Positions 15,526-64,000 of a DNA stretch of 64,000 nt are shown here, piece after piece. The notes beneath the pieces were generated by a model. That model did not search any database. It was not told the DNA's origin and saw nothing but the letters and a program-made list of their open reading frames with translations. The translations under genes were made by a program, and so were the position numbers. Source of the DNA: a virus; the IMG/VR virus record IMGVR_UViG_3300045988_098930. One strand, 5' to 3'. The first letter of the stretch is position 1. Each line of letters begins with the position of its first letter.

Positions 15526-15985
15526 GAAGCTGATGGGCCGTGGTGTTGCACCGCAGGTCCTACAACGGGCAGCAGAGCGTTTTGTGAATATGGCAGAATT
15601 GGCAGCTAATAACGCTATACCGACAACCGGTAGTATTACAGCGGAGGCAAGTGCGGTCAAGATAGATGGTACTACTGCTATGTTTACAGTCGATTATGAC
15701 CACGATACTGCTATGCGTGATAGCTTTTTACCAGACCATAAAAATCCGTATTATTCGAGCGGTCAGGCTGATTTGCTATATTTGTTCAACAATGGATGGG
15801 AGTATGACGATGCAAACGCGCCGTATGGAGAGTGGCGTGGTATGCGCGTTCGCGCCGTTTCGGCTCGTGCAGGATCGCATTTTGTGCAAAAGGTGGCCGA
15901 CTTGATGGAGAAGGCTGTGCCGGGATGCACTGTACAAATTAACCCCGCTTACGGAGTGCGTGAACGAGGGGGTGAGCAAGAATGA
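15476..15985 (+). CDS. Hypothetical protein immediately upstream of the tape-measure gene
   Basis: ORF track 15467..15985. ATG 15476 lies behind GGTGGTG. It overlaps the previous ORF by 50 nt in the +1 frame, and its stop overlaps the tape-measure ATG (ATGA). Confidence 0.45.
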   Translation: MKPLEERLAEYLKKNPKKLMGRGVAPQVLQRAAERFVNMAELAANNAIPTTGSITAEASAVKIDGTTAMFTVDYDHDTAMRDSFLPDHKNPYYSSGQADLLYLFNNGWEYDDANAPYGEWRGMRVRAVSARAGSHFVQKVADLMEKAVPGCTVQINPAYGVRERGGEQE

Positions 15986-18900: not shown

Positions 18901-21900
18901 GATCAGTACATACGCCGCATCGAACTTGCTCAACAGAAAACGCAAGAAGCGATTGGCATCTGGCAGGGCGCAAATGATAAATTAGAAGAACAACGCACTA
19001 AGTTGGGCGACACTTCTGACCGTTTGGAAGAACTCAACAAGCTCAAAGCAGGCGGCAATTGGACTGAGCAGCTTGAAGCAGAGAAGCGAGAGCTGGAACT
19101 GCAAAATGGACAGATACGTGACCAGATAGAGCTTTTAAAGATTAAGGCTGAATTAGATAGGCAAGCCGCCGTACAAGCGCTCAAGGATGAAATTGCGACC
19201 ACACAGGGCGCGACTCAATATGCTTTTGCTTGGAAAGTTGCGTCCTCTGCCGATGCTAAGGGGTATGCGGTGTCTGGACTGGCGGCAGATTCAGGCCAGA
19301 GGCAGTATGTAACTGCCGATCAGAACGAGGCGCTTGCAATCGCTTTGGCTCGTTTGCACGAGATAGAGGCCAGCAAAAAAGAGTCGGGTAAACTGACCAA
19401 ACAAGAACAAGCAGACCTTGAATCCATACGCACAACACTGACTGATGTTGGCCTTCAGTCAAATACGTGGGCTACACAACTTACGACTTTGGGTGAGGTT
19501 GATTTGGCTCGGCCTTACTTGGATGTTGTGTCTGCGGCAAGCGACGCAGTAGAATTAGCCAATCGTATTCAGGCTGATACCACCGTTTTATCTGATACGC
19601 TCAAACAGGCTTTGGATAGTAATGCCAATTTGGCGGCATTAGCTGGTGGGTTGACTAAGACGCAGTTATTGGCCCGTCAAAATTCTGGTGCATATCAAGC
19701 GCTGGCTACTATTGCGGCCCAATACGGTAAGACCGTTGAAGACATTACTCCAATCTTAGAAGACTTGGGGTATTTGCAAAAAGAAGTTGCTGGGTCAACC
19801 GAAGACCTGAAAAACGAACAAGGCCAACTGAATGATATATGGGCAGCGGCGCGTAGTGCTGGTGACGATGCCAGCGACACTGTTAAAAACCTCAAGGTCG
19901 CGATAGGCACGGTGCAGGATTGGCGCAGCACCAAGAACGAAGTGGCGGCAGCTATTGCTACCATCAATCAGCTCACCGGCCTTAATTTAGATGTTGATGC
20001 TGACGGACTTTTAGATACGCTTGACTTTATATCCGCTTATTTGTCTGGTGATATAGAGAAGTTCGAGAAGTATGGTATAGCGGCTATTAAGGCGTTGGGT
20101 GTTAAGCCTGATGCATCTGGTTTGCAAGCCGCATTGCAGGCACTAATCACACAATTTGGGTTGCTTAGTGGTGCGGCGCAGGCAACAGCGGCTACAATAT
20201 TGAGCGCATTTGAAAGCATCGGTGCAATCAAATGGGGTGGATTAACAGATTCGCAACAAGCGATTATGGACGACCCCAACGCTGACCCACGGGCCAAGGC
20301 TTATATCGCCGCACAGCGTAAACGTGTAGTCAATGATGATTGGTTCAAGAGCACTGCTGCCACCAGTAAGCGTTATGGTTCCTCTAAATCTGGTTCATCT
20401 AAGAAAACTACTGACTCTAAACTTGAAGCGTATAAGGCGTATATTAACGAGCTTGATCATCTGCTTGCTATGGAGCAAATCACCGAACAAGAATATTATA
20501 AGCGCAGTTTGGATGCTTTTAATAAATATCTCGGTGATAAAAAGAAATACCAAGACCAGTGGTGGGCGCTTCAGGAAAAGTATTATAAGTGGTGGAAAAA
20601 GCAGGCAGAAGATGCCGCCAGAGACCGCTATGAGGCCGATAAGAAAGCTGCTGAGGACGCTTATAAGGCCGAAAAGGAACGTATTGATAAGCTAAAAGAC
20701 GCCAATGACGATTTGTTGTCCGCTTATCAGGATCGCGTCAACTTCCAGAAAAAACAGCTTAATCGTGCTGGTGATGAACGGTCTTATGACCAAGAAGTGG
20801 CGGCGGCAAATAAGCGCATTGCCGACCTGAAAGCACAAATTGAAGTGCTGTCTTTGGACGATTCAGCCAACGCCAAGGCAAAGCGGCTTGAATTGCAAGA
20901 ACAGCTCGACGACGAGTTGCTTGATTTGGACAACAAAATGTATGACCGTTCGGCAGATGTGCAAAGCGATGCGCTGGATGATAGTCTGGATGAATACTCC
21001 CGCTATATTGGGGCGCAGAATAAGTTGCTGGACGAGCAGTTACGTCGACTGGAAAAACAGCATAATGCTATACTGGACAATCTGCAAAGCACCTTAGATT
21101 CAGCGCTGAATAACATCTCTACCATGTTCCAGCAGATGATGGCTGAGACCGAAAACATGGTGAATCAAATCAACGCCATGCTTGCCAGCATTGATGTATC
21201 TTCTCATGCGGGCATATCGCAGATGCAACAGGCGTTGGTGGACACTGGATACAATATCGGCTCTTACGGCGTACAGAAGAACGGTGTAGATGGCGTTATC
21301 GGCAAAATGACCGTTAAGGGCCTTCAGCAGTTCTTGAATGATAGCATGGGCGCTGGGCTGAAGGTAGATGGCAAGGTGGGCTCTAAGACTTACGCTGCCA
21401 TTCAAAATGCCGTCAATGCAGGCTTGTTGAACGAGTCTTACCTAAAGGCATTTCCGCGCAAATACCATACTGGTGGCGTAGTTGGTCAAGACTTTAACTC
21501 TGAGACCGCTTTTAAGGAGCTGGTCAAAAAGAAGCCTGATGAGGTTGATGCACGTCTACGCAAGGGCGAAGTGGTGCTTACCGAGGATCAGGCAATTAAG
21601 GCTGCGAAGCGGTTGGCGTTCTCATCTTCTGATGCCGAGCGTTTGTTCACTATAATGAGTCAAGGCATAGGTGGGTTGTTTGGTGGCGACGGCGCTTTGA
21701 AGCAGGCAACGAAGCTGGCGCAAACCGTAGCGAATAATACTACTCATGCACCCAGCGTTAGCGTTATCAATAACTTCAACGGCACAACTGATGCTGACAC
21801 TGTGCGGGCCATCGAGCGTTGGTCTGAGACGTTTAAAAAGCAGATTAAAGAGGAAATTTTTAGGGTTCCTATCAATAGCCTTGCACGGACGGGGCGGTTG

Positions 21901-21903
21901 TAA
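15982..21903 (+). CDS. Tail tape measure protein with C-terminal peptidoglycan-binding repeat
   Basis: 1973 aa. TP901-type core-like segment (MTDLQIASGLNRTQ...), long coiled coils, hydrophobic segment, and a PG_binding_1-like motif (LVDTGYNIG...VDGVIGKMTVKGLQQFL...VDGKVGSKTYAAI) near nt 21201-21430. Confidence 0.9.
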   Translation: MSNYDFQVFTQLVPSGATISELRKQVQDYFDKNAIKVKFSNFDLSGAASGTTTKQINATANALQAIKLSLQEINTARNKIVKAGTENTSNQIQAYNKQIKDSVVSLKELINTYAKLNGGKSVEFRDLTPLLNPTDIQAATDALRSLLQGAGMNGAAVETVLTSFKKGCWDVSEAAAKAADAVQKMHSEMAAKASAATAKTGQSVYAKYNDISAPDIANYTVDTTKLVQSYQAVKQQITDIQTVQSSGAKVSQAQWQLLIDAAQQYEIALKNVKVEQKDATATQKKADKELADLDKLQNKLIQLQATFGEGYFNNQKTIIQRLGLSSADVTDATDALATLRATYAQLEVAISSNNAADKQAAITNLQTAYQGFGASLRNLQTAARELNSSLNAGIQFQRLKSQAQAYFDQYATGIQRNSQLTKEWRELIQKIGNADQWQNSNQAAAALDDLKRRSQAAGVEVTSLNKKLRDMFGDTLYGFAVAQITSVAANAIHQVVTNVVELDKAMTDLQIASGLNRTQVRGLLEDYGQLAQAIGATTLEVAEAADGWLRQGYSMQETSELIKSSMMLSKLGQMNSDDATKALTSSLKGYQLQASSATDVVSKLVAVDMEAAASAGGLATAMSQTATLADQTGISMDRLIGIVATLMDVSQQSGESVGAAVKSMLARLGNIKAGRLIDPETGESLSDVETVLNNIGVKLRTNATDWRDYQDVLDDVAAKWGSLNETQQRAVAVALGQTRRQEQFNILMANYDKVRQFTETAANATGTAERKYLNYMDSVEAKINTLKASWESLSQTVLSSDLIVGGVQFLSQLIQGLDKVVSKLGAVPSVLAAISLVVSKRGKGLFGQEGLFTASLNKNGLSGNFLAQHVQRNFLTNKDISLLHQYNEALSQSIADGNTLADAHTKLTAELTKGSAAFQQYAVQLDGTGDSVEKVTAKGLKLSDVLLNVGNMALNMALGAAISMAIGLIIKRIDQYIRRIELAQQKTQEAIGIWQGANDKLEEQRTKLGDTSDRLEELNKLKAGGNWTEQLEAEKRELELQNGQIRDQIELLKIKAELDRQAAVQALKDEIATTQGATQYAFAWKVASSADAKGYAVSGLAADSGQRQYVTADQNEALAIALARLHEIEASKKESGKLTKQEQADLESIRTTLTDVGLQSNTWATQLTTLGEVDLARPYLDVVSAASDAVELANRIQADTTVLSDTLKQALDSNANLAALAGGLTKTQLLARQNSGAYQALATIAAQYGKTVEDITPILEDLGYLQKEVAGSTEDLKNEQGQLNDIWAAARSAGDDASDTVKNLKVAIGTVQDWRSTKNEVAAAIATINQLTGLNLDVDADGLLDTLDFISAYLSGDIEKFEKYGIAAIKALGVKPDASGLQAALQALITQFGLLSGAAQATAATILSAFESIGAIKWGGLTDSQQAIMDDPNADPRAKAYIAAQRKRVVNDDWFKSTAATSKRYGSSKSGSSKKTTDSKLEAYKAYINELDHLLAMEQITEQEYYKRSLDAFNKYLGDKKKYQDQWWALQEKYYKWWKKQAEDAARDRYEADKKAAEDAYKAEKERIDKLKDANDDLLSAYQDRVNFQKKQLNRAGDERSYDQEVAAANKRIADLKAQIEVLSLDDSANAKAKRLELQEQLDDELLDLDNKMYDRSADVQSDALDDSLDEYSRYIGAQNKLLDEQLRRLEKQHNAILDNLQSTLDSALNNISTMFQQMMAETENMVNQINAMLASIDVSSHAGISQMQQALVDTGYNIGSYGVQKNGVDGVIGKMTVKGLQQFLNDSMGAGLKVDGKVGSKTYAAIQNAVNAGLLNESYLKAFPRKYHTGGVVGQDFNSETAFKELVKKKPDEVDARLRKGEVVLTEDQAIKAAKRLAFSSSDAERLFTIMSQGIGGLFGGDGALKQATKLAQTVANNTTHAPSVSVINNFNGTTDADTVRAIERWSETFKKQIKEEIFRVPINSLARTGRL

Positions 21904-28060: not shown

Positions 28061-28954
28061 ATGAGTTCTACAACTGAATATGCTGGCTTACTGCTTGTAG
28101 ACCCGTTGGGTGCGGATAGCGCCATGTCGGGCAGCTCTTGGGTGGAGTCACAGGCGGGCATAGCGTCCACCAGCAATATGCAAATTATAGATGCCTTGCT
28201 GAAACAGAAGGCTTCTTTTACTGTAAAAACAGCCGACGAATGGAGCGCAGACACCACCACTATTCTTCGTGCAAATGATTTTGGCGTGGTGTCTGACACA
28301 GGTGAAGTGCGGCGTGGCGACGGTATTCACGCATGGGGTGAATTGACTACATTTGACCCCGGTAATGCCAGTGGCAAGGTGGATAAAGTGCTGGGTGCTG
28401 TCGGTCATTTAGTGCAGTTTGCCAATGACGGTGCAATAGCTGATAGCGGCAAAAAGATAGATGATTTTGCCTCTGCAACGCATACGCATGGCAATTTGAC
28501 CAATGATGGTAAACTCGGTTCTGTGGCAGATCAAGTAGCTGTGACTGATACTGGCGGTGCTTTGATCACTAAATCGGCGGCTGAAATGCGGACTTTGCTG
28601 GATGTGCCGCAAAGCGACAGTAAGCAGGATAAGATAACGGTGCAGGGCATTGTGAAGGGTGACGGTGCAGGCGGCGTGTCTGCGGCTCAAAGTGGTGTAG
28701 ATTTCGCATTGCCTGCTACGCTCTATACTGCTACATTGACTGCGGCGGGTTGGAACAATAAATCTCAAACTGTAAGTGTTGCTGGTGTGACCGCTAATAA
28801 TGTGGTGTTGGTGCAGGCGCAAGCCGATTCCAGTCAGGCGTATCGCGTGGCTAAAGTGATGGCTGATGCTACGCAAGTGGCTGGGCAACTGACATTTAGT
28901 TGCACCACTACGCCTACTGTCGATTTGACCGTTATGATTATTGTGTTGGGTTAG
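28061..28954 (+). CDS. Tail fibre protein
   Basis: N-terminal fibre motif (EWSADTTTILRANDFGVVSDTGEVRRGDGIHAWGEL), THTHGNLTNDGKLG motif, and a C-terminal Ig-like module shared with the next gene. Confidence 0.7.
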   Translation: MSSTTEYAGLLLVDPLGADSAMSGSSWVESQAGIASTSNMQIIDALLKQKASFTVKTADEWSADTTTILRANDFGVVSDTGEVRRGDGIHAWGELTTFDPGNASGKVDKVLGAVGHLVQFANDGAIADSGKKIDDFASATHTHGNLTNDGKLGSVADQVAVTDTGGALITKSAAEMRTLLDVPQSDSKQDKITVQGIVKGDGAGGVSAAQSGVDFALPATLYTATLTAAGWNNKSQTVSVAGVTANNVVLVQAQADSSQAYRVAKVMADATQVAGQLTFSCTTTPTVDLTVMIIVLG

Positions 28955-28964
28955 GGGTGATTGT

Positions 28965-29474
28965 ATGGCTATTGTAAATATAGGGGCTGGTAGCGGCTCT
29001 GAATATGGTGTATACGTTGGTACAGTTGCCCCTACTGACCCCAGCACTACTGTGTGGATTGTGCCAGATGACGAACCGACTACGATTGATGATATAGCGG
29101 CACAGGTAGTGATTAAGCCCACGACTAATACTACATTATCAGGCGTGCTTAAAGGCGCAAATGGTAAGATGGCGCAAGCAGTGGCGGGAACAGATTATCA
29201 AACGCCTTTAACTGCGGGTACGGATTACGCACAGCCGAGTATAACTGTAACGGTTACGTTGTCTGCAACGGGTTGGACTGATAATACGCAAACAGTGGCG
29301 GTGACTGGTGTGACTACTACTAATGCTATAATGATCGCTCCTGCTCCCGTATCTTTTTTAGCGTATTGTGATTCTCAGGTACGGGCAACAGCGCAGGCGG
29401 CTAATGCGCTTACATTCGCTTGCGAAGATGCGCCGACTGAGAATTTGACTGTGAATATTTTGATTATGAGGTGA
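28965..29474 (+). CDS. Tail fibre-associated protein with duplicated C-terminal module
   Basis: ORF track 28941..29474. ATG 28965 lies behind AGGGGTGA. The C-terminus (TVTLSATGWTDNTQTVAVTGVTTTN...LTVNILI) parallels the end of 28061..28954. Confidence 0.55.
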   Translation: MAIVNIGAGSGSEYGVYVGTVAPTDPSTTVWIVPDDEPTTIDDIAAQVVIKPTTNTTLSGVLKGANGKMAQAVAGTDYQTPLTAGTDYAQPSITVTVTLSATGWTDNTQTVAVTGVTTTNAIMIAPAPVSFLAYCDSQVRATAQAANALTFACEDAPTENLTVNILIMR

Positions 29475-30150: not shown

Positions 30151-30195
30151 ATGTGTAAAATAATTCTATCGGGGGGGGCAGCCTCCGTAAAATAA
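30151..30195 (+). CDS. 14-codon leader ORF containing a G8 tract
   Basis: ATG lies 7 nt after AAAGGAG. Translates to MCKIILSGGAASVK*. It sits upstream of an RBS-less gene. Confidence 0.3.
   Translation: MCKIILSGGAASVK
30171..30178 (+). repeat. Homopolymeric G8 tract
   Basis: Read directly: tatcGGGGGGGGcagc. Confidence 0.95.
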
Positions 30196-30211: not shown

Positions 30212-31105
30212 ATGATACCATTGCAGTTTGCCTTACGGCGCAGAATGATGATGGCAGGGGGAGGCTTACTGCCAAGTGGATTTACCCTCCTTGCGTGGAT
30301 AAAAGGCACAGGTACACAGTACATTGATACCGGGTTTGTGGTTAATAAGTCCGATAACTATGTGTTAGAAATAGACGGGTTATTTCCTTCGCAGGCGCAG
30401 GTGTATCAAGGTTGCAATGGCTATATGCAGTTTTTCACCAGTAGTAAATATGGTATAAGTGGCGATAGCTCTGTTGCAGTTGGTAATCGTAATACCGTGC
30501 GCGTAGAGTACGCTAATCAAACTGAAAAACTCTTTGTAGACGGAGCACAAATAGAGAGTAAACTGTGGTCAGCATACAATGGTTCTAATGTAAAACTTGC
30601 ATTATTACGCATGGGCGATGCCAACAACGGGTGGTACAATGGGGCAGCAGCTCAAGGTACGATATACGGTTATAAGGTGTGGAAGAACAATATCCTTGTT
30701 TCGGAATGTGTACCTTGTATACGTAATAGCGATGGTGCTGCCGGAGTGTATGATGTTATCCGAGAACAGTTTATTACTCCTGTCAACGGTGTGTTTTTGA
30801 CTCCTGATGGCGTCACTTATACGGTTACTACGAACTATATACCGGTTGCCGGACTTGTAACAGTAAACGGTTTAGATCTTCCGGTTAGTAACTCAACCAC
30901 AATTTACGCCGTTCCTTCCGGTGTGACAATCATTCTCCGTGCTCGTAGCGAGAGCACAAGCCAACTGGATATAACCGTGGATGACGTGGTTGTAGCAAGC
31001 GCATCACCGTTTCAGAGTGTCAGCTATACGTATGCCGTTACTAAAAACTGCACTGTACACGTATCCAATTCGGCAGCCGGCCAACGCTCATGGATAACAA
31101 CGTAA
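30212..31105 (+). CDS. Putative receptor-binding / fibre-like protein (MIPLQFALRRRMMM N-terminus)
   Basis: 297-aa ORF. No Shine-Dalgarno is visible in the 20 nt before the ATG. Confidence 0.5.
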   Translation: MIPLQFALRRRMMMAGGGLLPSGFTLLAWIKGTGTQYIDTGFVVNKSDNYVLEIDGLFPSQAQVYQGCNGYMQFFTSSKYGISGDSSVAVGNRNTVRVEYANQTEKLFVDGAQIESKLWSAYNGSNVKLALLRMGDANNGWYNGAAAQGTIYGYKVWKNNILVSECVPCIRNSDGAAGVYDVIREQFITPVNGVFLTPDGVTYTVTTNYIPVAGLVTVNGLDLPVSNSTTIYAVPSGVTIILRARSESTSQLDITVDDVVVASASPFQSVSYTYAVTKNCTVHVSNSAAGQRSWITT

Positions 31106-36789: not shown

Positions 36790-38295
36790 TTATAAGTCGT
36801 ATTTCCAAAAGATGCGGATTTCGTCTGTAAATATGCGAACCTCTTTTATCAGCATTGCGGCGACTTCATGGCGCTGTGCAATATCCATATAGGGCCACAT
36901 ATCCAGCGTGTCATACAGTTGTCGGGTGTTTTCGGGTGACGGTCTTTCCAGTATATGTTTTTGCAACGCAACCTCTATTTCATGGCGTTGTGTTTCTAAT
37001 GCAGCGATTTTATCGTTGAGATAACCTATGACCGTTGCAGAGCCTTGAGCGATTGCGTTCACCAAGTTGTCAATCTGTTCATTGATTTTATTGATTTGTA
37101 TTTTGTATTGTTGCTCCTTGATGTCGCACTCGGCAATCTGTTGTGCTTGTAGGTCGGAATGTCTTTGGATGTGTTGCATGATTTGGGTCTCAACCGCTTC
37201 TTCCACTTGTGCAATAGATACACGCGCATTATCATCACAAGTTCCGTAATTGGCATGTCCAGAGCATCGAAACTTTGGTACACCCTTTTTCATTACATCC
37301 GCTTTCATAGCTTTGCCGCAATAGCCGCATTTAATCAAACCAGTCAGCCATGAGTGTTTGCCTTGTCCTCCATTATATACCTGTGTGTTATTACTTAAAC
37401 GGTTCTGACACAACAAGAATGTTTGCGCATCAACTAACCCTTCATGTAATCCGATAGATAATGTGAGGCTTTTTAGCTGGTCGAACTTACGCCGTTTGTG
37501 ATCCCACTGCCCATACGTTACACAACCATTCACGCCTGCAAAGGCTTCAATCGGGTTGGTGATGTTGATGCCTGTTAAGCGATAGTAGTTATATATGTCT
37601 GCATTAGCCTTTACATATACGGGGTTGGACATGATGCGGCTAAGTTTGCAGGAGTCCCATGCTGCACCGCCCGGAGATGGCACACGCCGCTGATTGAGTT
37701 GCCTCGCCAATGCTCCTAATGATGTGCTTGTGTATGCGTATGCGTCAAAGATACCGCGCAATATCTGCGTCGTTTCTGGGTCGCATACCAGTGAACTCAC
37801 AGACTTGCCTTGTAGGGCGACCTTGGTTTTGATAAACCCATAAGGTGCTGTGGAGTCGTATGCTCCGTTTGCCGAGCGCATATAATAATTATCCCTGACA
37901 CGTAACTGTATAGTCTCACGTTCAAGTTGGGCAAAGACCATTATAATGCTCAACATGGCGTTGCCTATTGGGGTAGAGGTGTCAAATTTCTCGCGTGTAG
38001 ACTGGAACTCTACATTGTGTTGTTTGAATACCTCTATCATTTCTGCAAAGTCTAATAGCGACCTACTAAGCCTGTCCAGTTTATAGACCGTTACCTTATT
38101 GATTACGCCGGAATGAATGTCTTTCATCATTTCCTGAAACTGTGGACGATTTGTATTCTTTCCGCTAAATCCTTTGTCAATGTACACTTTTGTGGGTACA
38201 TCTATACCCAATTCTTGTTTACAGAGTTCAATTTGGGTTTCGATAGATAAACTGTCCTTTTTATCTAACGATTGTCTGGCGTATACCGCGTTCAT
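36790..38295 (-). CDS. int: Large serine recombinase (integrase)
   Basis: 501 aa. N-terminal resolvase catalytic domain (AVYARQSLDKKDSLSIETQ), Cys-rich zinc-ribbon segment and coiled coil typical of large serine integrases. Confidence 0.9.
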   Translation of the reverse strand: MNAVYARQSLDKKDSLSIETQIELCKQELGIDVPTKVYIDKGFSGKNTNRPQFQEMMKDIHSGVINKVTVYKLDRLSRSLLDFAEMIEVFKQHNVEFQSTREKFDTSTPIGNAMLSIIMVFAQLERETIQLRVRDNYYMRSANGAYDSTAPYGFIKTKVALQGKSVSSLVCDPETTQILRGIFDAYAYTSTSLGALARQLNQRRVPSPGGAAWDSCKLSRIMSNPVYVKANADIYNYYRLTGINITNPIEAFAGVNGCVTYGQWDHKRRKFDQLKSLTLSIGLHEGLVDAQTFLLCQNRLSNNTQVYNGGQGKHSWLTGLIKCGYCGKAMKADVMKKGVPKFRCSGHANYGTCDDNARVSIAQVEEAVETQIMQHIQRHSDLQAQQIAECDIKEQQYKIQINKINEQIDNLVNAIAQGSATVIGYLNDKIAALETQRHEIEVALQKHILERPSPENTRQLYDTLDMWPYMDIAQRHEVAAMLIKEVRIFTDEIRIFWKYDL

Positions 38296-38983: not shown

Positions 38984-39453
38984 TTAGTCTCCTGAAATAA
39001 ATATGTTATGTCTATAAGTTCTGGGCCAAGCGGTGCGTGTTCTACACGATAAAACCGTTGATTAGTTGTAAGACTGTTTAATGCGCCCAAAGATTGCTGG
39101 TAGCTACCCATTTTCAAATAGTCAGTAAGAGGCAATATGTCTGCCATTTCAGACCAATTATCATTGCCTGCATATACACAAGTTTTTAGGTGATAAGTCT
39201 TCGCAATTTGCAACGCTTTACACAGCTCGTCGATATTCTGTGTGCCACCCATAAAGCACACACAGGTGATATAGGGCGCATACTGTTCGACAACATCTAC
39301 CAGTGATGCCAGCAATGGGACCCCTACGTCTTCCCACAGGTGTGGGGAGTGGCAACCCTCGCATTTAAAAGGGCAACCACTCACCTCAAAAGCCAAACTG
39401 ACTTCATCGGGAACCTCTTGAAACACCACCGTATAAGAAGTGTATTTAAGCAT
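38980..39453 (-). CDS. nrdG: Anaerobic ribonucleotide reductase activating protein (radical SAM)
   Basis: CPFKCEGCHSP CxxxCxxC cluster, 157 aa, overlaps the nrdD stop. Confidence 0.85.
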   Translation of the reverse strand: MLKYTSYTVVFQEVPDEVSLAFEVSGCPFKCEGCHSPHLWEDVGVPLLASLVDVVEQYAPYITCVCFMGGTQNIDELCKALQIAKTYHLKTCVYAGNDNWSEMADILPLTDYLKMGSYQQSLGALNSLTTNQRFYRVEHAPLGPELIDITYLFQETK

Positions 39454-41696
39454 TGCCGTAATACCTCTTAGCAGCCTCCTTTTGCCGAGCTTCGCTAAAC
39501 TTTGATACGCGCTTTAGATAGCCTATAATGCGCGTTGCATAATCAATGTCTTCAGACCCGCACTTAGGACATTTTGTTAAAGTGTGTTTATCAATATAAC
39601 CGCACTTATTGCAAATAGTGTTACGAACATTAAAGGTGAAGTAAGAGCAACCTGTTTTGATGGCGTCTTGCATAATAATTTGATACTGCTTCTTGGTCAA
39701 ATGCTCTTGCAGATTCACATGATTAGCGCTGCCGCCATCAAGATACTGTGTGAGCTTGTTGCCGTGCAGGATAAATTTATCTATGAGATTGACACCATCA
39801 TCTTCGGGACGGAAAAAGTAGCTGTTATAACACTCGCGAGGAGAGAACAACCCGTCTGCCTTGTCCCATTTAGCATTTTTAACCCCGAGGTTTTCAGCAG
39901 GCACAAATTCGGTGTTAAACATCAGTTCATCTGTACGAGCTGCTTTATTCGCTTCAAAAATAGGTCTGAGTATCTTTTCGCCATACTCAAAATATTGTTC
40001 ATTGGGCGTAATGTCTATGCCAAGAAACTCTGCGCCCTCAACGAATCCATTGATGCCTATGGTTAAGAATTGTTTTTCTAAAGAGATATAACCTGCATCG
40101 TACACAGGCAGCAATTTGGACTTAAAATTGTCCTTCATAATCTCATTGAACGCTATCAGGTAGTGGTGGCACTCATCTACAATCTGCCGTACTGCATCAG
40201 ATATATCAATGCCGTCACGCACAGCCCACTGCACCAAGCGATTGATGTTGATGGTCATAACCCCCTTGGAGCCGGTTGCAATGCCCCCAGCACCTAACGT
40301 ATAAGAAAATGTGTTGTCTTGCAGCTCGTTCCGTAAACGGCAATTATGGGTGATCATGCCATTGGGCAGCGTAAAATATGGCTCGTCTTGGTTCCTACAT
40401 TCAAAGCAATACACAGAGTCATAATTGTTTGCTACACTGGTGATGTTTTGCACCTTAAAATAGATGCCGTTGTTGATTACTTTATATACGTCTGCCAATG
40501 TGCGCCGGTTTTGTGGCGTATACCAACGAACACACCACAACGGGTAGTTATGATTATATTCTTGTTCTCGGATAATGCATTTTTCATCTGTGCGATCTGA
40601 CACATCAATCACAGTGCTGAGACCCAATGATGTACACAGAGCTTCCAAGTCTTGAACGAGGCGTTCAGACGTAGTATAAATACGGTTGCTATTGCCCCCG
40701 TCTGTTGCATATAGTCCGTCTAATATGCCTTTGCGGAAATCGTAAGATTGCGCGAAAATAGATGGGTTAAGCCCTTTTTCTGCGGCGTACTTACCCACTA
40801 CATACTCCCGAATAAATGTGACCACTTCTTCTCCGCTAATACGTACAGGATATACATTATTGTAAGGTGTGCCTAATGTAAAGTCTCTGTCAATATCGCA
40901 ATCAGATAAAGCCTTACGCATAGCGCCTATACAATTAGTATATTTGGCTTCATTTAAAGAGAAGTCAGTTGAATAATAAATGGCATGATTTTTCGTCTCG
41001 TTTTGGCGAATACTCCCATCTCCCAAATACATACCAATCAGAAACCCTTGTTCGTAAGTAAGATGCAAGTCGCGTTCTTTGACTGCCATTAAAGGTCGAG
41101 TATTACAAAGAATGTAATCATCAGTAGTTAATTCGCTGACTGGCACATCTCCGCGCAAAGTGGGGAAGATATGATTGTCAGTTGCTTCAACAACTTTTTT
41201 GTTGGCTGTCTCTATGCGATACATAGGACGCACAGCCGGTAATGCAATAGTTTTTGCAGACACCCAACTGCCGTTATGGAACACTGTCAGATTTCTCTTA
41301 TCAGCCCACTTGGTATCATGCAATTCTTTAATGGGTATTAAACGTTCGCCGTCACTGGAACGAACAAGCACTTGAGTATCGGGAGCAAAACAACACGACG
41401 CGAGTGAGTCAACACTGCCACTACGATAAGTAAAGAAGCTATGCCCTTCGGCATACATTTCAGCGGCAAAATCTGCCCATTCTTGATCTACATAATTCAC
41501 TCCGTCATCCAGCAGATTCATTGTCTCCACGGGAAAGGTCAAAACTTGTTTAGTACGTTCTTTATTAAACCACTTCATAAAATATTTCTGAAGCCAACTT
41601 ACGCTCTCCCAACATGGAGTTGTACCATCAGGGAACACAAAATCTGTAAATATACCGTGAAAGTAAGGTTCGTCAAAGTAGGCAATATTCCAAAAT
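39446..41696 (-). CDS. nrdD: Anaerobic ribonucleoside-triphosphate reductase, exon 2 (contains an intein)
   Basis: NrdD-like sequence (FWNIAYFDEPYF...) starts right after an in-frame TGA. C-terminal Zn ribbon CNKCG...CPKCG and glycyl-radical motif RIIGYL. Confidence 0.8.
40343..41392 (-). mobile_element. Intein (350 aa) with LAGLIDADG homing endonuclease, inserted in the NrdD SCC|RLR motif
   Basis: Starts CFAPDTQVLV and ends MITHN, followed by +1 Cys. LAGLIDADG motifs are FLIGMYLGDGS and ILDGLYATDGG. The flanks rejoin to SLASCCRLRNE. Confidence 0.8.
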
Positions 41697-58209: not shown

Positions 58210-58341
58210 TCATATCGTGTGAGATTTATTGCACACAGATATGGTCTGTTGAACATTCCGATACCCATACTTTTGGTACAATGTGTCTGAGTCCTTTAGT
58301 ATTTGACGCGCCGTTTGCAAATCCTTCTGCAATTCATTCAT
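58210..58341 (-). CDS. Small hypothetical protein (43 aa)
   Basis: ATGA overlap with the upstream stop. Translates to MNELQKDLQTARQILKDSDTLYQKYGYRNVQQTISVCNKSHTI. Confidence 0.3.
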   Translation of the reverse strand: MNELQKDLQTARQILKDSDTLYQKYGYRNVQQTISVCNKSHTI

Positions 58342-58772
58342 TGTTTACCCCACTTCCCTTCTTTAGTCTGCTGTTGAATATCTGGTATTGCCGGGTTATT
58401 TGGTACTCGTGCGCTATACACTTGGTTCTGTTGTTTAGCTACAATCTTCCGTGAGTCTCCTTTAATCTGTGCTAATTTAGATGCCAAAGTGTTTTGCGTC
58501 TGAGTAAAATCATACAACCCTTTTAAAACTTCGTTTTCTTCTTTAGCCTGTCGCCTGCGGATTCTGGCCTCACGTAATGACTTATAACACGCATACCCAT
58601 CACGAGCATTCTTCGGATTGGACAATTCTATGTCATGCAGAATGTCTTGAATTTCATCATTGGCTTCTTTGTATATATCCTCATTCAATCTATACCGTTG
58701 TTGCACATCAGTAAGAATACTGAGAATAGCGTCAATATTACGTTCCGCTAAATTCTCCACAAGGGCCATCAC
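58338..58772 (-). CDS. Hypothetical coiled-coil protein
   Basis: 144-aa ORF, first gene downstream of the tRNAs. Confidence 0.5.
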   Translation of the reverse strand: MMALVENLAERNIDAILSILTDVQQRYRLNEDIYKEANDEIQDILHDIELSNPKNARDGYACYKSLREARIRRRQAKEENEVLKGLYDFTQTQNTLASKLAQIKGDSRKIVAKQQNQVYSARVPNNPAIPDIQQQTKEGKWGKQ

Positions 58773-58793
58773 CTACCTTTCAATTTTCACTAC

Positions 58794-58877
58794 TGGTGCT
58801 CAAGGCGGGATTTGAACCCGCAAGGCTTTTGCCGACAGATTTTAAGTCTGTTGTGTATGCCGTTCCACCACTTGAGC
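58794..58877 (-). tRNA. tRNA-Leu (anticodon UAA), CCA encoded
   Basis: Hand fold: acceptor GCTCAAG/CTTGAGC, anticodon arm ACAGA-CTTAAAA-TCTGT, long variable arm CGGCAAAAGCC, T arm GCGGG-TTCAAAT-CCCGC, then ACCA. Confidence 0.85.
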
Positions 58878-58958
58878 GTGATGCCCGTCTTTCCGAGCTG
58901 TCACAAGTCTGTTCCCTGTTGTCAACTCTATTAAGGGGAGTTCAATGCGGTTGCCCGC

Positions 58959-59034
58959 TGGCTGAGGTGGCAGGATTTGAACCTGCGTGTGTCAGAGTCA
59001 AAGTCTGATGCCTTTACCACTTGGCGACACCTCA
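58959..59034 (-). tRNA. tRNA-Gln (anticodon UUG), CCA encoded
   Basis: Hand fold: acceptor TGAGGTG/CACCTCA, D arm GCC...GGC, anticodon arm TCAGA-CTTTGAC-TCTGA, T arm GCAGG-TTCAAAT-CCTGC, then GCCA. Confidence 0.85.
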
Positions 59035-60158
59035 ATGCAATGGGCGGTTTGCACCGCCCTAAATTGTTGTTTGATATTGCATATACTACGATATGCGTGA
59101 AAGCGGTGAGCATGGCCTGCCCACGAATCAACCGACACCCGAATGTCGTCTAAACTCATTCGACCCGCCGCTAACCATCGAGCGAACTTCTTTAACTTGC
59201 GCCGCATAGTTGTCACTGATAGCGGACTGAGTTTTCGCCACACACCGCCATGTTTGTTTAAAACATACAACCCCTTTAAGAAAGTCACACCGTTACTCAG
59301 TTTGGCAATCTGCGTCTTTTTAGGGTTTAACTTAATTCCCAACTTATCACATTCGGCTTGCAACTGATATAAACACAAAGTTAAATACTGTTTACTTGGA
59401 TGAATCATATACCCATCATCCATATATCGCGCATAATATTTGATGCCCAACTTTTCTTTCACAAAATGGTCGATACGATTAGGGAGTGCTAAGGCACATA
59501 TCTGTGAGACTTGACTGCCCAGCCCTAATCCTTGATCACCAAATTGTTTGATAAAATATTCGGTTTGCCGAAGCACATCTTGATCTGTGATACAACGGCG
59601 TAACTCCTGAAATACCGCCGCATGATTGGCAGAGTCAAAGTATTTAGAAAAGTCAAACGTGAGTACATAACCTTCATTTGTACCATACTTATTATAGTAT
59701 TGATGTAAATGTTTGACAAGGCGTTGCATCGAAAAGTCAATTCCCTTGCCTTTGAGAGATGCCCCGTTATCGTAAATGAAGGTACTACTAAGAAGTGGTA
59801 TCAAAGCATAATCGCACAGACAACGTTGAATTACCCTTTCCGAAATATGAACACTGCGGATATGTCGCGGTTTGCCGCGTTCAATCAAATCAAATTCTAC
59901 AAACCCCTTACTGCGATATGTTCCGTTTAATAGGCGTTGCCTATCGCAGTAGATATTGTCCAGCGCATTAGCCTTATACTCCTGCACGCTGCACTTCCAG
60001 CCTACGCCCTTGCGCGACGCCTTCCATGCTTTGTATAAGTGCTCCATTGAGAAAATCTCATTAAAGTTACCGACAGCCGCATTGCGCTTGGCGCGTTGTG
60101 CTTCTCGGTATTGTTTGCGGCGTTGATACCGCAGTTCATGCCGTTCTTCACTTGTCAT
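58998..60158 (-). CDS. DGR reverse transcriptase
   Basis: Start at MTSEERHELRY (ATG 60158). RT motifs include LGLGSQVSQ and YMDDGYM. The longer ORF-track form (to 60524) only reads through the TR. The last 37 nt overlap tRNA-Gln. Confidence 0.85.
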   Translation of the reverse strand: MTSEERHELRYQRRKQYREAQRAKRNAAVGNFNEIFSMEHLYKAWKASRKGVGWKCSVQEYKANALDNIYCDRQRLLNGTYRSKGFVEFDLIERGKPRHIRSVHISERVIQRCLCDYALIPLLSSTFIYDNGASLKGKGIDFSMQRLVKHLHQYYNKYGTNEGYVLTFDFSKYFDSANHAAVFQELRRCITDQDVLRQTEYFIKQFGDQGLGLGSQVSQICALALPNRIDHFVKEKLGIKYYARYMDDGYMIHPSKQYLTLCLYQLQAECDKLGIKLNPKKTQIAKLSNGVTFLKGLYVLNKHGGVWRKLSPLSVTTMRRKLKKFARWLAAGRMSLDDIRVSVDSWAGHAHRFHAYRSICNIKQQFRAVQTAHCIEVSPSGKGIRL

Positions 60159-60365
60159 AAAAATCCTTCGTATGGCTATAACGTGTTGCAGCCACATAGT
60201 TGCGACCATGAAAACAGAGAGAGCACGTATCATCTGTCCATGCAAGCAGCGTCCGGTCGCTTTCATCAAAGAATCACATTTACCCTTACAGGAAGGTCTT
60301 AGGCTCCTTCTATTTGTTGTACTGAGTTCGCTTCTAAAAGAAGTTAATACGTCGGACATGAAATG

Positions 60366-60493
60366 GAATCCCAGCGCCACGCCATTCGAGTTATTGGCAT
60401 TGTCATTGTTCGCGCTCCCAGATGTGTTAACCATACAGAAGTTGTTGGAGTTATTGACATTCGCGGAGCGTAGCCAAACATTACAAGCGGAGC
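60366..60493 (-). repeat. DGR template repeat (TR)
   Basis: 128 nt matching 61049-61176 at 112 positions. In coding sense it is rich in AAY codons (SANVNNSNNFCMVNTSGSANNDNANNSNG). Confidence 0.85.
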
Positions 60494-60524
60494 AAATGCT
60501 ATACAGCCTAAAACCTAAACACAA

Positions 60525-60947
60525 TTATGAGGAAGTCTTGCCAGCTTTTAGTTTAAGGAAACGCGCTTTGTCGGTTTTCTTAACACCTTGAATCAATTCC
60601 ATTTCCTTGTGGATCATAGCTATCCATGCTTCTTCGGCGTTTAAAGAGATAATGCAATCTTCGTAAGCTAAAGTAATTTCATCATATAGATTTTGCAGGC
60701 ATTGATACGCCTTGTTCAAATAACGGGTGCGCTCATCAAGCTGGGCTTGGTTGTTTACATATACACCATTAGCGGCACGCACATAATTGCAGCAATGCGC
60801 CGCTAATTCGTTGATTCTGGCCCCGCCATAAAATGTGCGACGTTTAGGAAATTTTAACGCCTTAGCACGGCTATACCGCCACAAATCCATGGCAGTATCT
60901 AAAAACTGTACATTACTTTTCTTACGTTTGCTTGCATATACCGACAT
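60525..60947 (-). CDS. avd: Accessory variability determinant (Avd-like)
   Basis: 140-aa basic, helical-looking protein between the VR and TR, the position and size typical of Avd. Confidence 0.65.
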   Translation of the reverse strand: MSVYASKRKKSNVQFLDTAMDLWRYSRAKALKFPKRRTFYGGARINELAAHCCNYVRAANGVYVNNQAQLDERTRYLNKAYQCLQNLYDEITLAYEDCIISLNAEEAWIAMIHKEMELIQGVKKTDKARFLKLKAGKTSS

Positions 60948-61011
60948 TGTTTGTTCCTTTCATATTTTCGCCTGCCGTTGCTTCCCCTAACGGGGAAGTC
61001 AACGGGGGATT

Positions 61012-61030
61012 AAGGCGCTTTGCAAGCGCC
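61012..61030 (-). promoter_or_regulatory. GC-rich hairpin just downstream of the VR (candidate DGR target-recognition hairpin)
   Basis: AGGCGCTT-TGC-AAGCGCCT, 10 nt past the target stop codon. A second hairpin at 60973-61003 (CCGTTGCTTCCCC-TAAC-GGGGAAGTCAACGG) follows. Confidence 0.5.
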
Positions 61031-61039
61031 TATTTCCGA

Positions 61040-61954
61040 TTAAATACAGAAGCCCAGCGCCACGCCATACGAGTTACTGGCAATGTCACGGTTCGCGCTC
61101 CCAGATGCGTTAACCACACAGAAGGAGTAGGAGTTAACGACATACGCGGACCGTAGCCAAACATAACAAGCGGAGCCGTTCTGTGTAAAGATGTTGCTAC
61201 TCCGAGTGTACTTGACACCCTCTTGCGTGCCGGAGTAAGAAGTTACACCCAGAATTTCATACTCAGACCCCGGCCACAGCCTATCTGATGTAGGATTTGC
61301 GCCCTTATTATTTACCTTATTAACAGCCTTAATGCCGTTCGTTGCCTGTAATTCTGCGGGCAACAAAGTGAGATATGAAGGTACAGTCGTAGAACGCATC
61401 CGAGACGCACCCCAGCCACCCTCATTTGTGTTGCTACTATTCATCTGAGCGCTGGCAGAAAAGCACTGCTTCATAAAGAAGGTTGCCGCAGCCTTACCGC
61501 CTGTGCCGCCGCCATCAGTACGAGCATCGGTACGTACACCGCATAATTCAACCGCAACAGTTTCAGAACCAAACGTCACATTCTTGGCCGCTTTAAGTGT
61601 AAACCCATTGAAATTCGTTATCAATTCACCGCTATTACATATAGAAATGATTTGTTCCCACGTCAACGCCGAGAACGGACTATTGGTACTGAATAACTGC
61701 CACACACCCGCCACTCCGATATAGGCGTTGCAATACACCCATGTCGAACCGTTATACTGCATTGTGAGTCCGGGAGTCAGAGTTAAATTTTGTTTACCGG
61801 CCACATTAAGCTGATAGCCGCCACCATCTACTGTATGCACCCACAAATCGCCATTAGCGGGTTCAGCGGGCTTGACATAAGAAAAATAAATCGTTTCAGG
61901 CGTAGTAGCAGTTAATACTACTACCTGACCATCAACGACTGCGCTGGGGAGCAA
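61040..61954 (-). CDS. DGR target protein with C-terminal variable region (C-type-lectin-like ending ...WLRSAYVVNSYSFCVVNASGSANRDIASNSYGVALGFCI)
   Basis: As assembled, the frame has only a TTG start (61954) with no RBS. It is open upstream through a G12 tract and would join ATG 62024 if the tract were 11 nt. Confidence 0.75.
   Translation of the reverse strand: MLPSAVVDGQVVVLTATTPETIYFSYVKPAEPANGDLWVHTVDGGGYQLNVAGKQNLTLTPGLTMQYNGSTWVYCNAYIGVAGVWQLFSTNSPFSALTWEQIISICNSGELITNFNGFTLKAAKNVTFGSETVAVELCGVRTDARTDGGGTGGKAAATFFMKQCFSASAQMNSSNTNEGGWGASRMRSTTVPSYLTLLPAELQATNGIKAVNKVNNKGANPTSDRLWPGSEYEILGVTSYSGTQEGVKYTRSSNIFTQNGSACYVWLRSAYVVNSYSFCVVNASGSANRDIASNSYGVALGFCI
61049..61176 (-). repeat. DGR variable repeat (VR)
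   Basis: Hand alignment to the TR gives 16 mismatches, 15 at TR adenines (coding sense) and one C-to-G. Confidence 0.85.
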
Positions 61955-61970
61955 AGAAGCTATCTGTATA

Positions 61971-62024
61971 TCAAAGGATACCCCCCCCCCCCGATTTTTT
62001 GTTACATACCATATTAAATAACAT
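61971..62024 (-). CDS. 17-codon ORF (MLFNMVCNKKSGGGGIL*) that is probably the true, out-of-frame 5' end of the DGR target gene
   Basis: ATG 62024 lies downstream of AAAGGAGGA. The ORF runs into the G12 tract and terminates at TGA only because of the tract length. Confidence 0.4.
   Translation of the reverse strand: MLFNMVCNKKSGGGGIL
61981..61992 (-). repeat. Homopolymeric G12 tract (C12 on the plus strand)
   Basis: Read directly: ggataCCCCCCCCCCCCgatttttt. Confidence 0.95.
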
Positions 62025-62032
62025 GAAATTTT

Positions 62033-62467
62033 TTAATCCTCCTTTATTTGTTCGAACGACACAGTGACCGGCATACGCCAACCGGTCTGACTGGCGTTTA
62101 ATATGGCCGTTATGAAATTCTTGGCTAACATGTCTTGGACCGCAGGCTGATTAAGCTCCGCTCTAATCATAGCCGAAAAGGCCGCTTGATTATTTTCAAT
62201 CATTGTGGCTATTTCCTTAGACACAGTATCTTTGATAGCATTAGTTGCCAACCACCGCAAATACGGTTGCGCCCGATATGAACTCGAAGAACATGGTTCA
62301 CCTCTTTCATTTACCGAGCTGGCGACAACCGCCCGCACAGCTTTGCGCACTAATTCAGTTTTATCGCCCAACGCATCAGCGATTGCTATGCACACAGCGT
62401 CGCTTACATTCTTTTCTATCAGAGCCTTGTCTATTTCAATGCCCATACTCAGTTTTTCAGTTGCCAT
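62033..62467 (-). CDS. Hypothetical protein
   Basis: 144-aa ORF behind AAAGGAGGTGATGAGGA, directly upstream of the DGR target. Confidence 0.5.
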   Translation of the reverse strand: MATEKLSMGIEIDKALIEKNVSDAVCIAIADALGDKTELVRKAVRAVVASSVNERGEPCSSSSYRAQPYLRWLATNAIKDTVSKEIATMIENNQAAFSAMIRAELNQPAVQDMLAKNFITAILNASQTGWRMPVTVSFEQIKED

Positions 62468-62483
62468 TCCTCATCACCTCCTT

Positions 62484-63230
62484 TTAAAACGAATAATCGT
62501 TTATCCATGACTCTATCCACAAACGCGCATCCTCCTTCTCCATGAAAAAATGAATACCGGTAGAACATTCGTTCCATCTGTTTGTATCATAATCGTCAAC
62601 TTGAAGTGTTTGCCCAATTGTATACATAAAAGCATAATTATATATACTATGGATCGGCACTGCATCGGGAAGCTGTTGACCATTAGACAAGGTGTAAGCA
62701 TCTAATACTATCGCCTTATTGCATCGGCATTTTCGAGTAGTTGCGCTACTTCTGTACGCATCGGCTGGAATTTCAAGTGTGACCAATACGGGGCATATAT
62801 GCAGATCTGGATCATAGCACCATGCCCCCTTGTACCCAATAAAGCTGCCGTTCATGGGACATTGAGGACGATAATAAAGCGTCTTATCATTAACAATCGC
62901 AGTCTCTAAGCCACAGCAAAGAATAAATTTGCAAGTATACAAATTCGCATGGCACAAATTTACTTCTTGCAAATCACAGTGTACAAAGCTAACACACCTC
63001 GCTAATGTACATCCTGTGAACACCGCCTTAGTGAAATTACACGCTACAAAATCACACTTGATAAAAACACAATCAATGAATTGCACATAACGCAAATCTT
63101 GATGGGAGGCGTTTATCTTGTTTATCACACAATTCCGCAATACTAATTGCTGGCCTTGACCGTTCTGCTCTATCCACAACCGATGCTGGCGCACACACTC
63201 TTCAAATTGAGCGACATCTATTACGACCAT
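62484..63230 (-). CDS. Pentapeptide-repeat protein with a C-terminal domain of unknown function
   Basis: ORF track 62484..63260. ATG 63230 lies behind AAGGAGAG. A run of about 20 pentapeptide units (e.g. CVFIKCDFVACNFTKAVFTGCTLARCVSFVHCDLQEVNLCHANLY). Confidence 0.6.
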   Translation of the reverse strand: MVVIDVAQFEECVRQHRLWIEQNGQGQQLVLRNCVINKINASHQDLRYVQFIDCVFIKCDFVACNFTKAVFTGCTLARCVSFVHCDLQEVNLCHANLYTCKFILCCGLETAIVNDKTLYYRPQCPMNGSFIGYKGAWCYDPDLHICPVLVTLEIPADAYRSSATTRKCRCNKAIVLDAYTLSNGQQLPDAVPIHSIYNYAFMYTIGQTLQVDDYDTNRWNECSTGIHFFMEKEDARLWIESWINDYSF

Positions 63231-63241
63231 ATATTCTCTCC

Positions 63242-63922
63242 TTACGCTACTAAAGTACACACCTTATCCTTAACGTGCAAAGCAAGCGGAACGAGTTCGC
63301 CAATCATTTCCTTTATATAATCATTATCACCAGCTTCAGCATTAAGATTTAAGGTTTTAGAATTAAGATAAGTTTCCAATTCGGATTTGGTCGTACACAA
63401 GAACTTTTTAAGCCCACCCATAGTATATGACGGCATAACAGGTTCGGCAAGGGGTGTCGGCTCTTGTTGCGCCAGTTCCCTTTCCAGCCGCTTGTTCTCG
63501 GCTCGAAGATTAGTCAATTCCCGCATTTGCTCAGAAGTCAAAGCATTGTCCTCCAACGCTTCTGTTTGCTCTAACAACTCTTGAATATACCCGTTAGCCT
63601 CATTGATCTTCTGTTGCGAATCCTGCAACTTGCACTTCAGATTATAATTTTCGCTGTTAGCCTTCTGGTAGTTCTCGTAAGCCCGTCTACAATCTTCTTG
63701 TAGTTTATCTATTTTGGCAACCAGTTCAGGATCACCCTTCTGTTTAAGCTCAGTAATACGGTCATCCAGTTCGTTATTCTTCGCCACAATCAAATTAAGC
63801 CTATTGGCAAGCGACGCATTAGTACCTTGCCATTGCTTTTCCTTTTGCTCCATTTCAACTTGCTGTTGCCGTATCTGACACAAATATTTGTCAGTGAGCT
63901 TGGCTGTGATACGCTCCTTCAC
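63242..63922 (-). CDS. Coiled-coil hypothetical protein (5' end may lie beyond the window)
   Basis: 226-aa ORF from GTG 63922. The frame stays open up to the window edge. Confidence 0.45.
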   Translation of the reverse strand: MKERITAKLTDKYLCQIRQQQVEMEQKEKQWQGTNASLANRLNLIVAKNNELDDRITELKQKGDPELVAKIDKLQEDCRRAYENYQKANSENYNLKCKLQDSQQKINEANGYIQELLEQTEALEDNALTSEQMRELTNLRAENKRLERELAQQEPTPLAEPVMPSYTMGGLKKFLCTTKSELETYLNSKTLNLNAEAGDNDYIKEMIGELVPLALHVKDKVCTLVA

Positions 63923-64000
63923 CGGCAGAGCATTATAAAGCTGCTCCTGCTCGTCCTCTGATAGCTTGCCTATGATACGTGAAGCGACGCTGGCAGATAC

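Follow-up and report, generated by a model that had tools for sequence, protein, structure and literature searches.

Is the minus-strand cassette towards the end of IMG/VR virus record IMGVR_UViG_3300045988_098930 a complete diversity-generating retroelement (DGR), and, if so, what does it diversify and can its target gene be read from start to end? The record was analysed over its whole stretch of 64,000 nt, which we call the window. We are highly confident that the cassette is a complete DGR of a temperate siphovirus-type gut phage, made up of a target gene, the accessory protein Avd, a template repeat (TR), a spacer RNA of the RT-2 type and a reverse transcriptase (RT), with a target that is probably tail-associated and an apparent poly-G gate on that target. 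A sequence-only reading had already proposed a DGR here. The gene order it gave for the minus strand (target, Avd, TR, a 207-nt spacer and RT) was the same on re-reading, and every defining part visible in sequence is present; neither outcome that it had named as counting against a DGR (an RT grouping with retron or group II enzymes, or variable-repeat variation not restricted to adenine sites) was found where tested.

The template and variable repeats

The TR (60493 to 60366, minus) and the variable repeat (VR; 61176 to 61049, minus) are each 128 nt long, and the VR holds the last 42 complete codons of the target gene. An ungapped alignment of the two gives 16 mismatches, 15 of which lie on TR adenines (7 A>T, 5 A>G and 3 A>C) and one of which is C>G. 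Given 33 adenines among 128 bases, at least 15 of 16 mismatches would fall on A by chance with P = 1.1e-9 (hypergeometric test). The likeness ends sharply on either side of the 128 nt, and a scan of the 64-kb window that ignored adenine positions found neither a third TR-like copy nor a second VR. The sequence-only reading had the coordinates, the repeat length and the mismatch counts right to the base; its rough tally of TR adenines proves to be exactly 33, and re-translation returned the TR and VR peptides that it had given.

The translation of the TR in the target frame is SACNVWLRSANVNNSNNFCMVNTSGSANNDNANNSNGVALGF. Of its codons in the VR frame, 13 are AAY, which makes ~10^17.6 amino-acid variants accessible, and a stop codon cannot arise from any substitution of its adenines. 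Of the 15 TR-adenine mismatches, 14 fall at codon positions 1 or 2. The single non-adenine mismatch, at 61151 (C in the TR, G in the VR), is synonymous, changing CGC to CGG. It is common to the window and contig L002 and is not in the other copies of the same VR examined; it was either inherited as a polymorphism or arose by a rare misincorporation at a base other than adenine.

The activity of the element was examined by comparison with close relatives from public assemblies, at 92-98% nucleotide identity (L001-L003, L008-L013 and L014-L018). Taking the window together with seven related assemblies, the eight TR/VR pairs have 154 mismatches, of which 149 are on TR adenines; the TRs are nearly identical, every VR is distinct and the VR differences fall in TR-adenine columns. 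Single pairs show the same pattern: 17 of 18 mismatches are on TR adenines in L017, and L003, a poor assembly with 20 gap openings in 3.9 kb, has 23 adenine-site mismatches plus a single T>G and a 1-nt insertion. All 10 mismatches are on TR adenines in L004, which is a different phage with an RT of 47% identity. None of the eleven ungapped VR copies examined contains a stop codon. The sequence-only reading had asked whether VR polymorphism in the population is confined to adenine sites, and this is answered in part: it is so between samples, among assemblies of the same lineage, which is a different comparison from reads within one sample. Judged by these patterns, the DGR has evidently been active recently, with turnover of the VR at adenine sites by mutagenic retrohoming.

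Some of the close relatives carry a second VR, at 275-402 in L010 and 1372-1499 in L018, ~10-11 kb beyond the point equivalent to window position 64000. It differs from the TR at 17 positions, all of them adenines, is followed by its own GC-rich hairpin with a GCAA loop and ends a shorter DUF6273 protein of a 234-aa family (P0064/P0067/P0073). It was not seen within 10 kb in L009 or L011-L013.

Both repeats end 3' in an adenine-free, GC-rich stretch, GGCGTGGCGCTGGG, that resembles an initiation of mutagenic homing (IMH) element (VR copy 61053..61066, TR copy 60370-60383, minus). This 14-mer is unchanged in every TR and VR examined, including those of the distinct DGR of L004. Directly after it, at 61052, the TR has A and the VR has C (GGA versus GGC, a synonymous GGN site), and past there TR and VR diverge. 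The VR base is C in 11 of 11 copies of the window-type VR read, and the mismatch at 61052 is therefore a fixed difference rather than a fresh mutation; the equivalent position is T in the second VR of L010. Thus, although the count of 15 adenine mismatches in the sequence-only reading stands, 61052 should not be included among new mutations. Because the 14-mer is invariant and the fixed difference lies just past it, the arrangement supports GGCGTGGCGCTGGG as a putative IMH-like 3' boundary of cDNA integration, in agreement with the anchor suggested earlier from its lack of A, with TR- and VR-specific sequence beyond.

Downstream of the VR and the stop codon are two GC-rich inverted repeats (60975..61031, minus), a candidate for the hairpin/cruciform element of DGR target sites. 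The first (61031 to 61013) has an 8-bp stem and a loop of GCA or TGCAA, and the second (61005 to 60975) has a 13-bp stem with one bulge and the 4-nt loop GTTA; they start 17 and 43 nt past the VR end, respectively. The region folds as DNA with a z-score of -3.8, and none of 200 shuffled sequences folded as well. GC-rich hairpins with other stem sequences also come after the second VR of L010 and L018 and after the VR of L004, with TAATCCCC in front of each of them. The element described by Guo et al. is GC-rich, lies 4-34 bp past the VR and forms a hairpin/cruciform whose 4-nt loop is GRNA. As GC-rich hairpins downstream of VRs, those here would be in keeping with such an element, loops excepted. 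Their identification as transcription terminators was rejected, as a terminator scan gave no terminator-like site between the target and Avd genes.

The target gene and its poly-G run

The body of the target gene (61040..61981, minus) comprises 313 codons in one frame. The encoded protein has an N-terminal domain rich in beta structure and, at the C-terminus, a DUF6273 domain whose end lies in the VR. The DUF6273 match (Pfam PF19789) scores 32.9 bits against a cut-off of 23.5, over residues 167-303, and the 77 homologues of the target are annotated with the same family. DUF6273 is a known DGR-target domain that has been described as C-lectin-like (PMC10743442, PMC11792537). An AlphaFold (AF2) model of the target has a pLDDT of 87, and its fold matches in BFVD include many phage DUF6273 proteins; a search by sequence gave no usable match to a solved structure. 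The gene body has dN/dS values of 0.05-0.30, that is, it is under purifying selection.

The sequence-only reading had found the role of the target not obvious, given its distance from the tail genes. That uncertainty is narrowed by two homologues with 47-48% identity over the full length, in L004 and L005, which come directly after the tape-measure protein (TMP), Dit, Tal and a further tail gene; in L004, Avd, RT-2 and RT come next. In L005, the neighbour upstream of the homologue has a C-terminal domain of which the window itself carries two copies, in its tail module at 28610-28951 and 29223-29468. Since the homologues are placed distally, where tail modules end, the target is probably a receptor-binding or adhesion protein associated with the tail, a role suggested by synteny.

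The start of the target gene differs from that given by the sequence-only reading, which had placed it at 61954 and missed a frameshift. Homologues of the target are 326-341 aa long, with N-termini of the form MIFNMV...GGG..VSFNV in a single open reading frame (ORF). Because these N-termini read through as one ORF from the equivalent codon, the true start is the ATG at 62024. In the window this conserved start (61971..62024, minus; MLFNMVCNKKSGGGG...) runs into a TGA after 17 codons. The N-terminus is split, with the ATG opening MLFNMVCNKKSGGGGIL and then a stop, and with the remainder (VSFDIQIASLLPSAVVDG...) in another frame. Between them is a homopolymer of 12 G (G12; 61992 to 61981, minus), which is out of frame; G8, G11 and G14 would be in frame.

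The length of the run was compared among 13 assemblies. It is 8 in L010, 10 in L013, 11 in L003, L011, L015 and L018, 12 in the window, L014, L016 and L017, 13 in L009 and 14 in L008 and L012. Across the run the reading frame is kept in 6 of the 13 assemblies (L008, L010, L011, L015 and L018 among them) and lost in 7. The tract is a long homopolymer in coding sequence, its length differs between strains and the differences change the frame. More distant target homologues encode the glycine run with mixed codons, without a homopolymer, and the homopolymer is therefore a derived feature of the window lineage. The simplest interpretation of this sequence comparison is that the poly-G run would be a hypermutable tract that switches or tunes target expression. 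Slippage during transcription or translation could make an out-of-frame G12 leaky.

Two other explanations of the run have to be weighed. The first is that G12 and the length differences are sequencing or assembly errors at a homopolymer, so that the gene is intact and there is no switch. Long G runs are error-prone on all platforms, 5 of the 6 IMG/VR contigs come from one metagenome and the L003 assembly, as noted, is clearly of low quality. Nonetheless, the lengths span 8 to 14, well past a one-base error, and the run is the sole indel in 5.7 kb when the window is compared with L009 or with L011. G12 is present in four non-identical assemblies, and three of these are contigs from three records, one of them 92.6% identical to the window; they belong to L014-L018, which have SPAdes-style 'NODE' names, come from human gut metagenomes, include both G11 and G12 and are none of them identical to the window. 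The mixed glycine codons of the distant homologues and a second G run in the same genome that also toggles (below) are likewise difficult to reconcile with error. We regard this explanation as unlikely, whilst giving it more weight than those that follow.

The second is that the DGR is real but that its target is decaying or silent here, with the frameshift after codon 14 abolishing expression and the cassette being a relic displaced from the tail module. The loss of frame to G12 and in 7 of the 13 assemblies would be expected in this case, as would the position of the cassette outside the tail module; moreover, by eye, no Shine-Dalgarno-like sequence precedes the next in-frame start, a TTG at 61954, and both L012 and L013 carry further small rearrangements just past the run. 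Against decay, the 251-codon non-VR body of the target has no stop codons in any relative, out-of-frame ones included, the dN/dS values given above indicate selection, and between two G12 genomes at dS 0.28 the dN/dS of the target body is 0.065. In addition, the VRs keep changing at adenine sites only, free of stop codons in all eleven copies, and the frame-restoring lengths (8, 11 and 14) are found in six assemblies. Decay is, in our judgement, improbable, and frame switching by a variable tract remains the reading that we prefer.

The rearrangements themselves are small. L012 has lost 29 nt in four small deletions just 3' of the run (window equivalent 61937-61975), and L013 has one extra C 55 nt downstream of it. 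Such events seem to concentrate in the first 30 codons of the target.

Only two runs of at least 8 G or C bases occur in the 64 kb, the one in the target (61981-61992) and a G8 at 30171-30178 (plus). The latter lies inside a mini-ORF of 14 codons (30151-30195) that encodes MCKIILSGGAASVK behind a strong ribosome-binding site. Shortly downstream of the mini-ORF is a gene for 297 aa (30212-31105), which weakly matches a ConA-like lectin. In four related contigs this second run is 9, 8, 8 and 9 long. With G9, the mini-ORF is longer and its stop, a TGA, shares bases with the ATG start of the 297-aa gene (ATGA), an overlap through which translation of the two could be coupled. We considered whether the 297-aa gene or the mini-ORF is a relic of the target in the tail module and rejected this, as there is no significant similarity (E = 0.013 over 57 residues); the likeness of MCKIILSGGAASVK to target N-termini is too short to judge.

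Reverse transcriptase, spacer RNA and Avd

The RT gene (58998..60158, minus) encodes 386 aa from an ATG at 60158 and matches Pfam RVT_1 (2.9e-16) and PHROG 1423 (2e-77). Its best match among solved structures is 8ub7, the Bordetella DGR RT (E = 8.5e-20, 74 bits), released as a DGR ribonucleoprotein reverse transcriptase; the matches to a group II intron RT structure (2.4e-6, 30 bits) and a retron-type RT (2e-5, 27 bits) rank below it. Both motifs named in the sequence-only reading, LGSQVSQ and YMDD, are present, and the former aligns on IGSLTSQ of 8ub7. [I/V/L]GxxxSQ is the signature motif of DGR RTs, and its first residue promotes adenine misincorporation together with Arg74 (PMC7826257). The residue of the window RT that aligns with bRT Arg74 is a conserved Arg.

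That the RT instead comes from a retron or a group II intron, with the repeat pair an ordinary diverged duplication, can be dismissed with near certainty: the best NCBIfam match is indeed a group II RT/maturase model, but at 62.7 bits it is so far below the cut-off of 300 that we rejected the classification, and the idea is refuted by the structure matches above, by the LGSQVSQ motif in place of QGxxxSP, by a mismatch pattern with P = 1e-9 and by an Rfam search of 58500-62200 (E <= 1) that returned RT-2 but neither a group II intron nor a retron RNA family.

The spacer between TR and RT is filled by this structured RNA, Rfam RF03077 (RT-2 RNA; 60361 to 60143, minus). The match scores 109.6 bits against a gathering score of 40 (E = 1e-26) and covers model positions 1-222 of 222. 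The DGRs of L002 and L003, and the distinct one of L004, have an RT-2 motif at the equivalent place between TR and RT. Weinberg et al. (2017) described RT-1 to RT-19 as motifs near RT genes, placed RT-10 alone in a DGR, that of BPP-1, between TR and RT, and speculated on a DGR function for the other RT motifs (PMC5737381). By analogy, the RT-2 spacer presumably corresponds to the spacer of BPP-1, to which RT-Avd binds and from which cDNA synthesis is primed.

The 508-aa minus-strand ORF 58998-60524 is an artefact of the TR and the entire RT-2 spacer having no stop codon in the frame of the RT; automated gene calling might give this extended ORF as the RT, which begins at 60158.

Avd (60947 to 60525, minus), a protein of 140 aa, has a match at 2.6e-10 to PHROG 3206, which is named 'Avd protein of DGR'. 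For the protein itself, Pfam and NCBIfam gave no direct match and the PDB no usable one by sequence, and a profile of 61 relatives likewise returned nothing relevant in PDB. An exhaustive search collected 259 relatives; among the 61 that were aligned, 3 match Pfam bAvd and 5 match 23S_rRNA_IVP. The AF2 model is a four-helix bundle (pLDDT 92.7) whose top fold matches are 2gsc and 2rld, followed by 8ub7_B and 4dwl (Bordetella phage Avd), with target-normalised TM scores of 0.78-0.89. It is through this fold search and the Pfam matches of family members that the 140-aa gene is linked to solved Avd structures and Pfam.

Two tRNA genes lie past the RT. A tRNA-Gln (UUG; 58959-59034, minus; ARAGORN, and Rfam tRNA at 65.9 bits) extends over the final 12 codons of the RT ORF and is a neighbour of the DGR rather than a part of it. 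A tRNA-Leu (UAA; 58794-58877, minus) comes after it, and both tRNAs are also found past the RT in L003.

Genome setting, known systems and proposed mechanism

The window has two arms. On the plus strand are a terminase, a portal, an ORF of 1973 aa in the tape-measure position (15982-21903), Dit and a Tal-like protein; on the minus strand are a serine integrase, the anaerobic ribonucleotide reductase NrdD, a DNA polymerase, a primase and a helicase, and the whole DGR cassette is located there. The sequence-only reading had thus correctly put the cassette in the replication arm, away from the tail genes, and the placement is the same in all six of the longer related contigs that could be compared. 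The entire cassette appears to have been the unit that moved.

Since a large serine integrase (36790-38295, minus) and NrdD (39446-41638, minus) are encoded, the phage is probably temperate and its host probably an anaerobe. Several related contigs of 98-151 kb, versus 55-83 kb for the others, may be prophages with host flanks. A host scan of the genome gave one weak match, 40% identity over 48 residues, to an Oscillospiraceae metagenome-assembled genome (MAG); the host is probably a gut Firmicutes.

Other differences and neighbours are more peripheral. Two genes upstream of the target, 62484-63260 (minus) encodes a 258-aa protein with pentapeptide repeats and DUF5758 (1.1e-28), with weak Qnr-like and HalA-like matches. 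At 58240|58241, ~575 nt that are present in L010-L013 are missing from the window; a 189-aa gene of L011 is reduced to a 43-aa ORF (58210-58341) and a 56-aa gene is lost. Downstream of its DGR, L004 has the Rfam motifs skipping-rope and DUF3800-I, at 14645-14723 and 20293-20399.

We compared the element with the DGR of Bordetella phage BPP-1 (mtd-avd-TR-brt). The two share the order of target, Avd, TR, spacer and RT, a VR at the target 3' end, an RT with the [I/V/L]GxxxSQ motif and the conserved Arg74-aligned residue, an Avd that is a four-helix bundle, AAY-rich codons, and an adenine-free, GC-rich 3' end in both repeats followed by inverted repeats. They differ in that the window RT is of low identity (a match of only 74 bits), the spacer RNA is RT-2 rather than the RT-10 placed in BPP-1 by Weinberg et al., the target is a DUF6273 protein and not Mtd-like, a poly-G run is present, the hairpin loops are off the GRNA consensus and the cassette is in the replication arm. 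With regard to Rfam RT-2 itself, the match is full length and directly upstream of an RT gene, as expected of the family; in contrast to the 2017 description, it occupies here, in five loci, precisely the interval from a verified TR to its RT.

Temperate gut phages commonly carry DGRs, and DUF6273 targets have been described before. Gut Firmicutes phages with DGRs of this kind include the Faecalibacterium prophages Lelie, CP11, Roos and Pioen and the 'tentaclin' phages nd4 and nd12; from these the window differs in its target's N-terminal domain, in a cassette that is not beside the tail genes and in the poly-G run. Cultured phages include no close relative by sequence: the target has 32% identity to a protein of FP_Taranis across 43% of its length, and the portal reaches at most 35% identity with that of any deposited phage. 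A distant-mode nucleotide search of GenBank phages with the cassette returned a 75-nt match only.

Taken together, a mechanism for this DGR can be proposed. By analogy with BPP-1, RT-Avd would bind an RNA that spans the TR and the structured RT-2 spacer. cDNA would then be made across the TR with random bases placed opposite adenines, as the mismatch pattern indicates. The cDNA would presumably replace the VR at the target 3' end, with its 3' boundary in the adenine-free GGCGTGGCGCTGGG, and the GC-rich hairpins downstream would probably help homing. The predicted outcome is ~10^17 stop-free variants in the C-terminal DUF6273 domain. As an added layer, the hypermutable poly-G just past the start codon appears to gate production of the full-length target, with the G12 of the window out of frame.

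Some observations weigh against this interpretation. As assembled, the target ORF of the window is severed from its conserved start codon, and this copy may make no full-length protein; one-base homopolymer differences in some of the assemblies could be sequencing error. Continuing retrohoming in the window genome is suggested by assembly-to-assembly differences, and the location of the target in the virion by the synteny of relatives at 47-48% identity. The C-type-lectin matches of the target in the fold search are weak (E = 0.3-3), and Mtd and TvpA are absent among the 50 PDB fold matches listed for it. Finally, the hairpin loops (GCA or TGCAA and GTTA in the window, GCAA after the second VR of relatives) do not match the published GRNA consensus.

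As an element, this is one more well-documented DGR of a known type, in a gut phage and with a DUF6273 target. What is added is the assignment of the RT-2 spacer, activity assessed by comparison, a tail-module origin for the target, the replication-arm position kept among relatives and the variable poly-G. Evidence for DGR activity could be drawn from public data alone, from adenine-restricted VR turnover with a nearly constant TR among a dozen related assemblies. The presence of RT-2, an orphan in Rfam, in the TR-RT spacer of verified DGRs gives it a concrete proposed function and would provide a second spacer architecture beside that of BPP-1.

Among these additions, the poly-G run alone could set the element apart from known DGRs. 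The nearest precedent is in Campylobacter phages, in which Sorensen et al. (2021, Cell Rep 35:109214, as cited in PMC10877375) reportedly found hypermutable poly-G tracts in genes; as here, changes in the length of a G homopolymer, in the gene for a probable host-recognition protein, are said to switch the frame. The tract in the window differs in lying in a DGR target, where an on/off switch would stack on adenine mutagenesis, and in that its changes of length are seen between assemblies. We suggest tentatively, with a little less than even confidence, that two diversifiers are stacked on the target: adenine mutagenesis of the binding surface, and a poly-G tract after codon 10 for on/off or level control, with the second tract toggling upstream of the lectin-like gene in the tail region. 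In that case the phage would have, at a distance from its tail genes, the gene for an adhesin that is dispensable, phase-variable and hypervariable. We know of no description of adenine mutagenesis stacked with a phase-variable poly-G for DGR targets. If true, the expression of a hypervariable binding protein may itself be stochastic.

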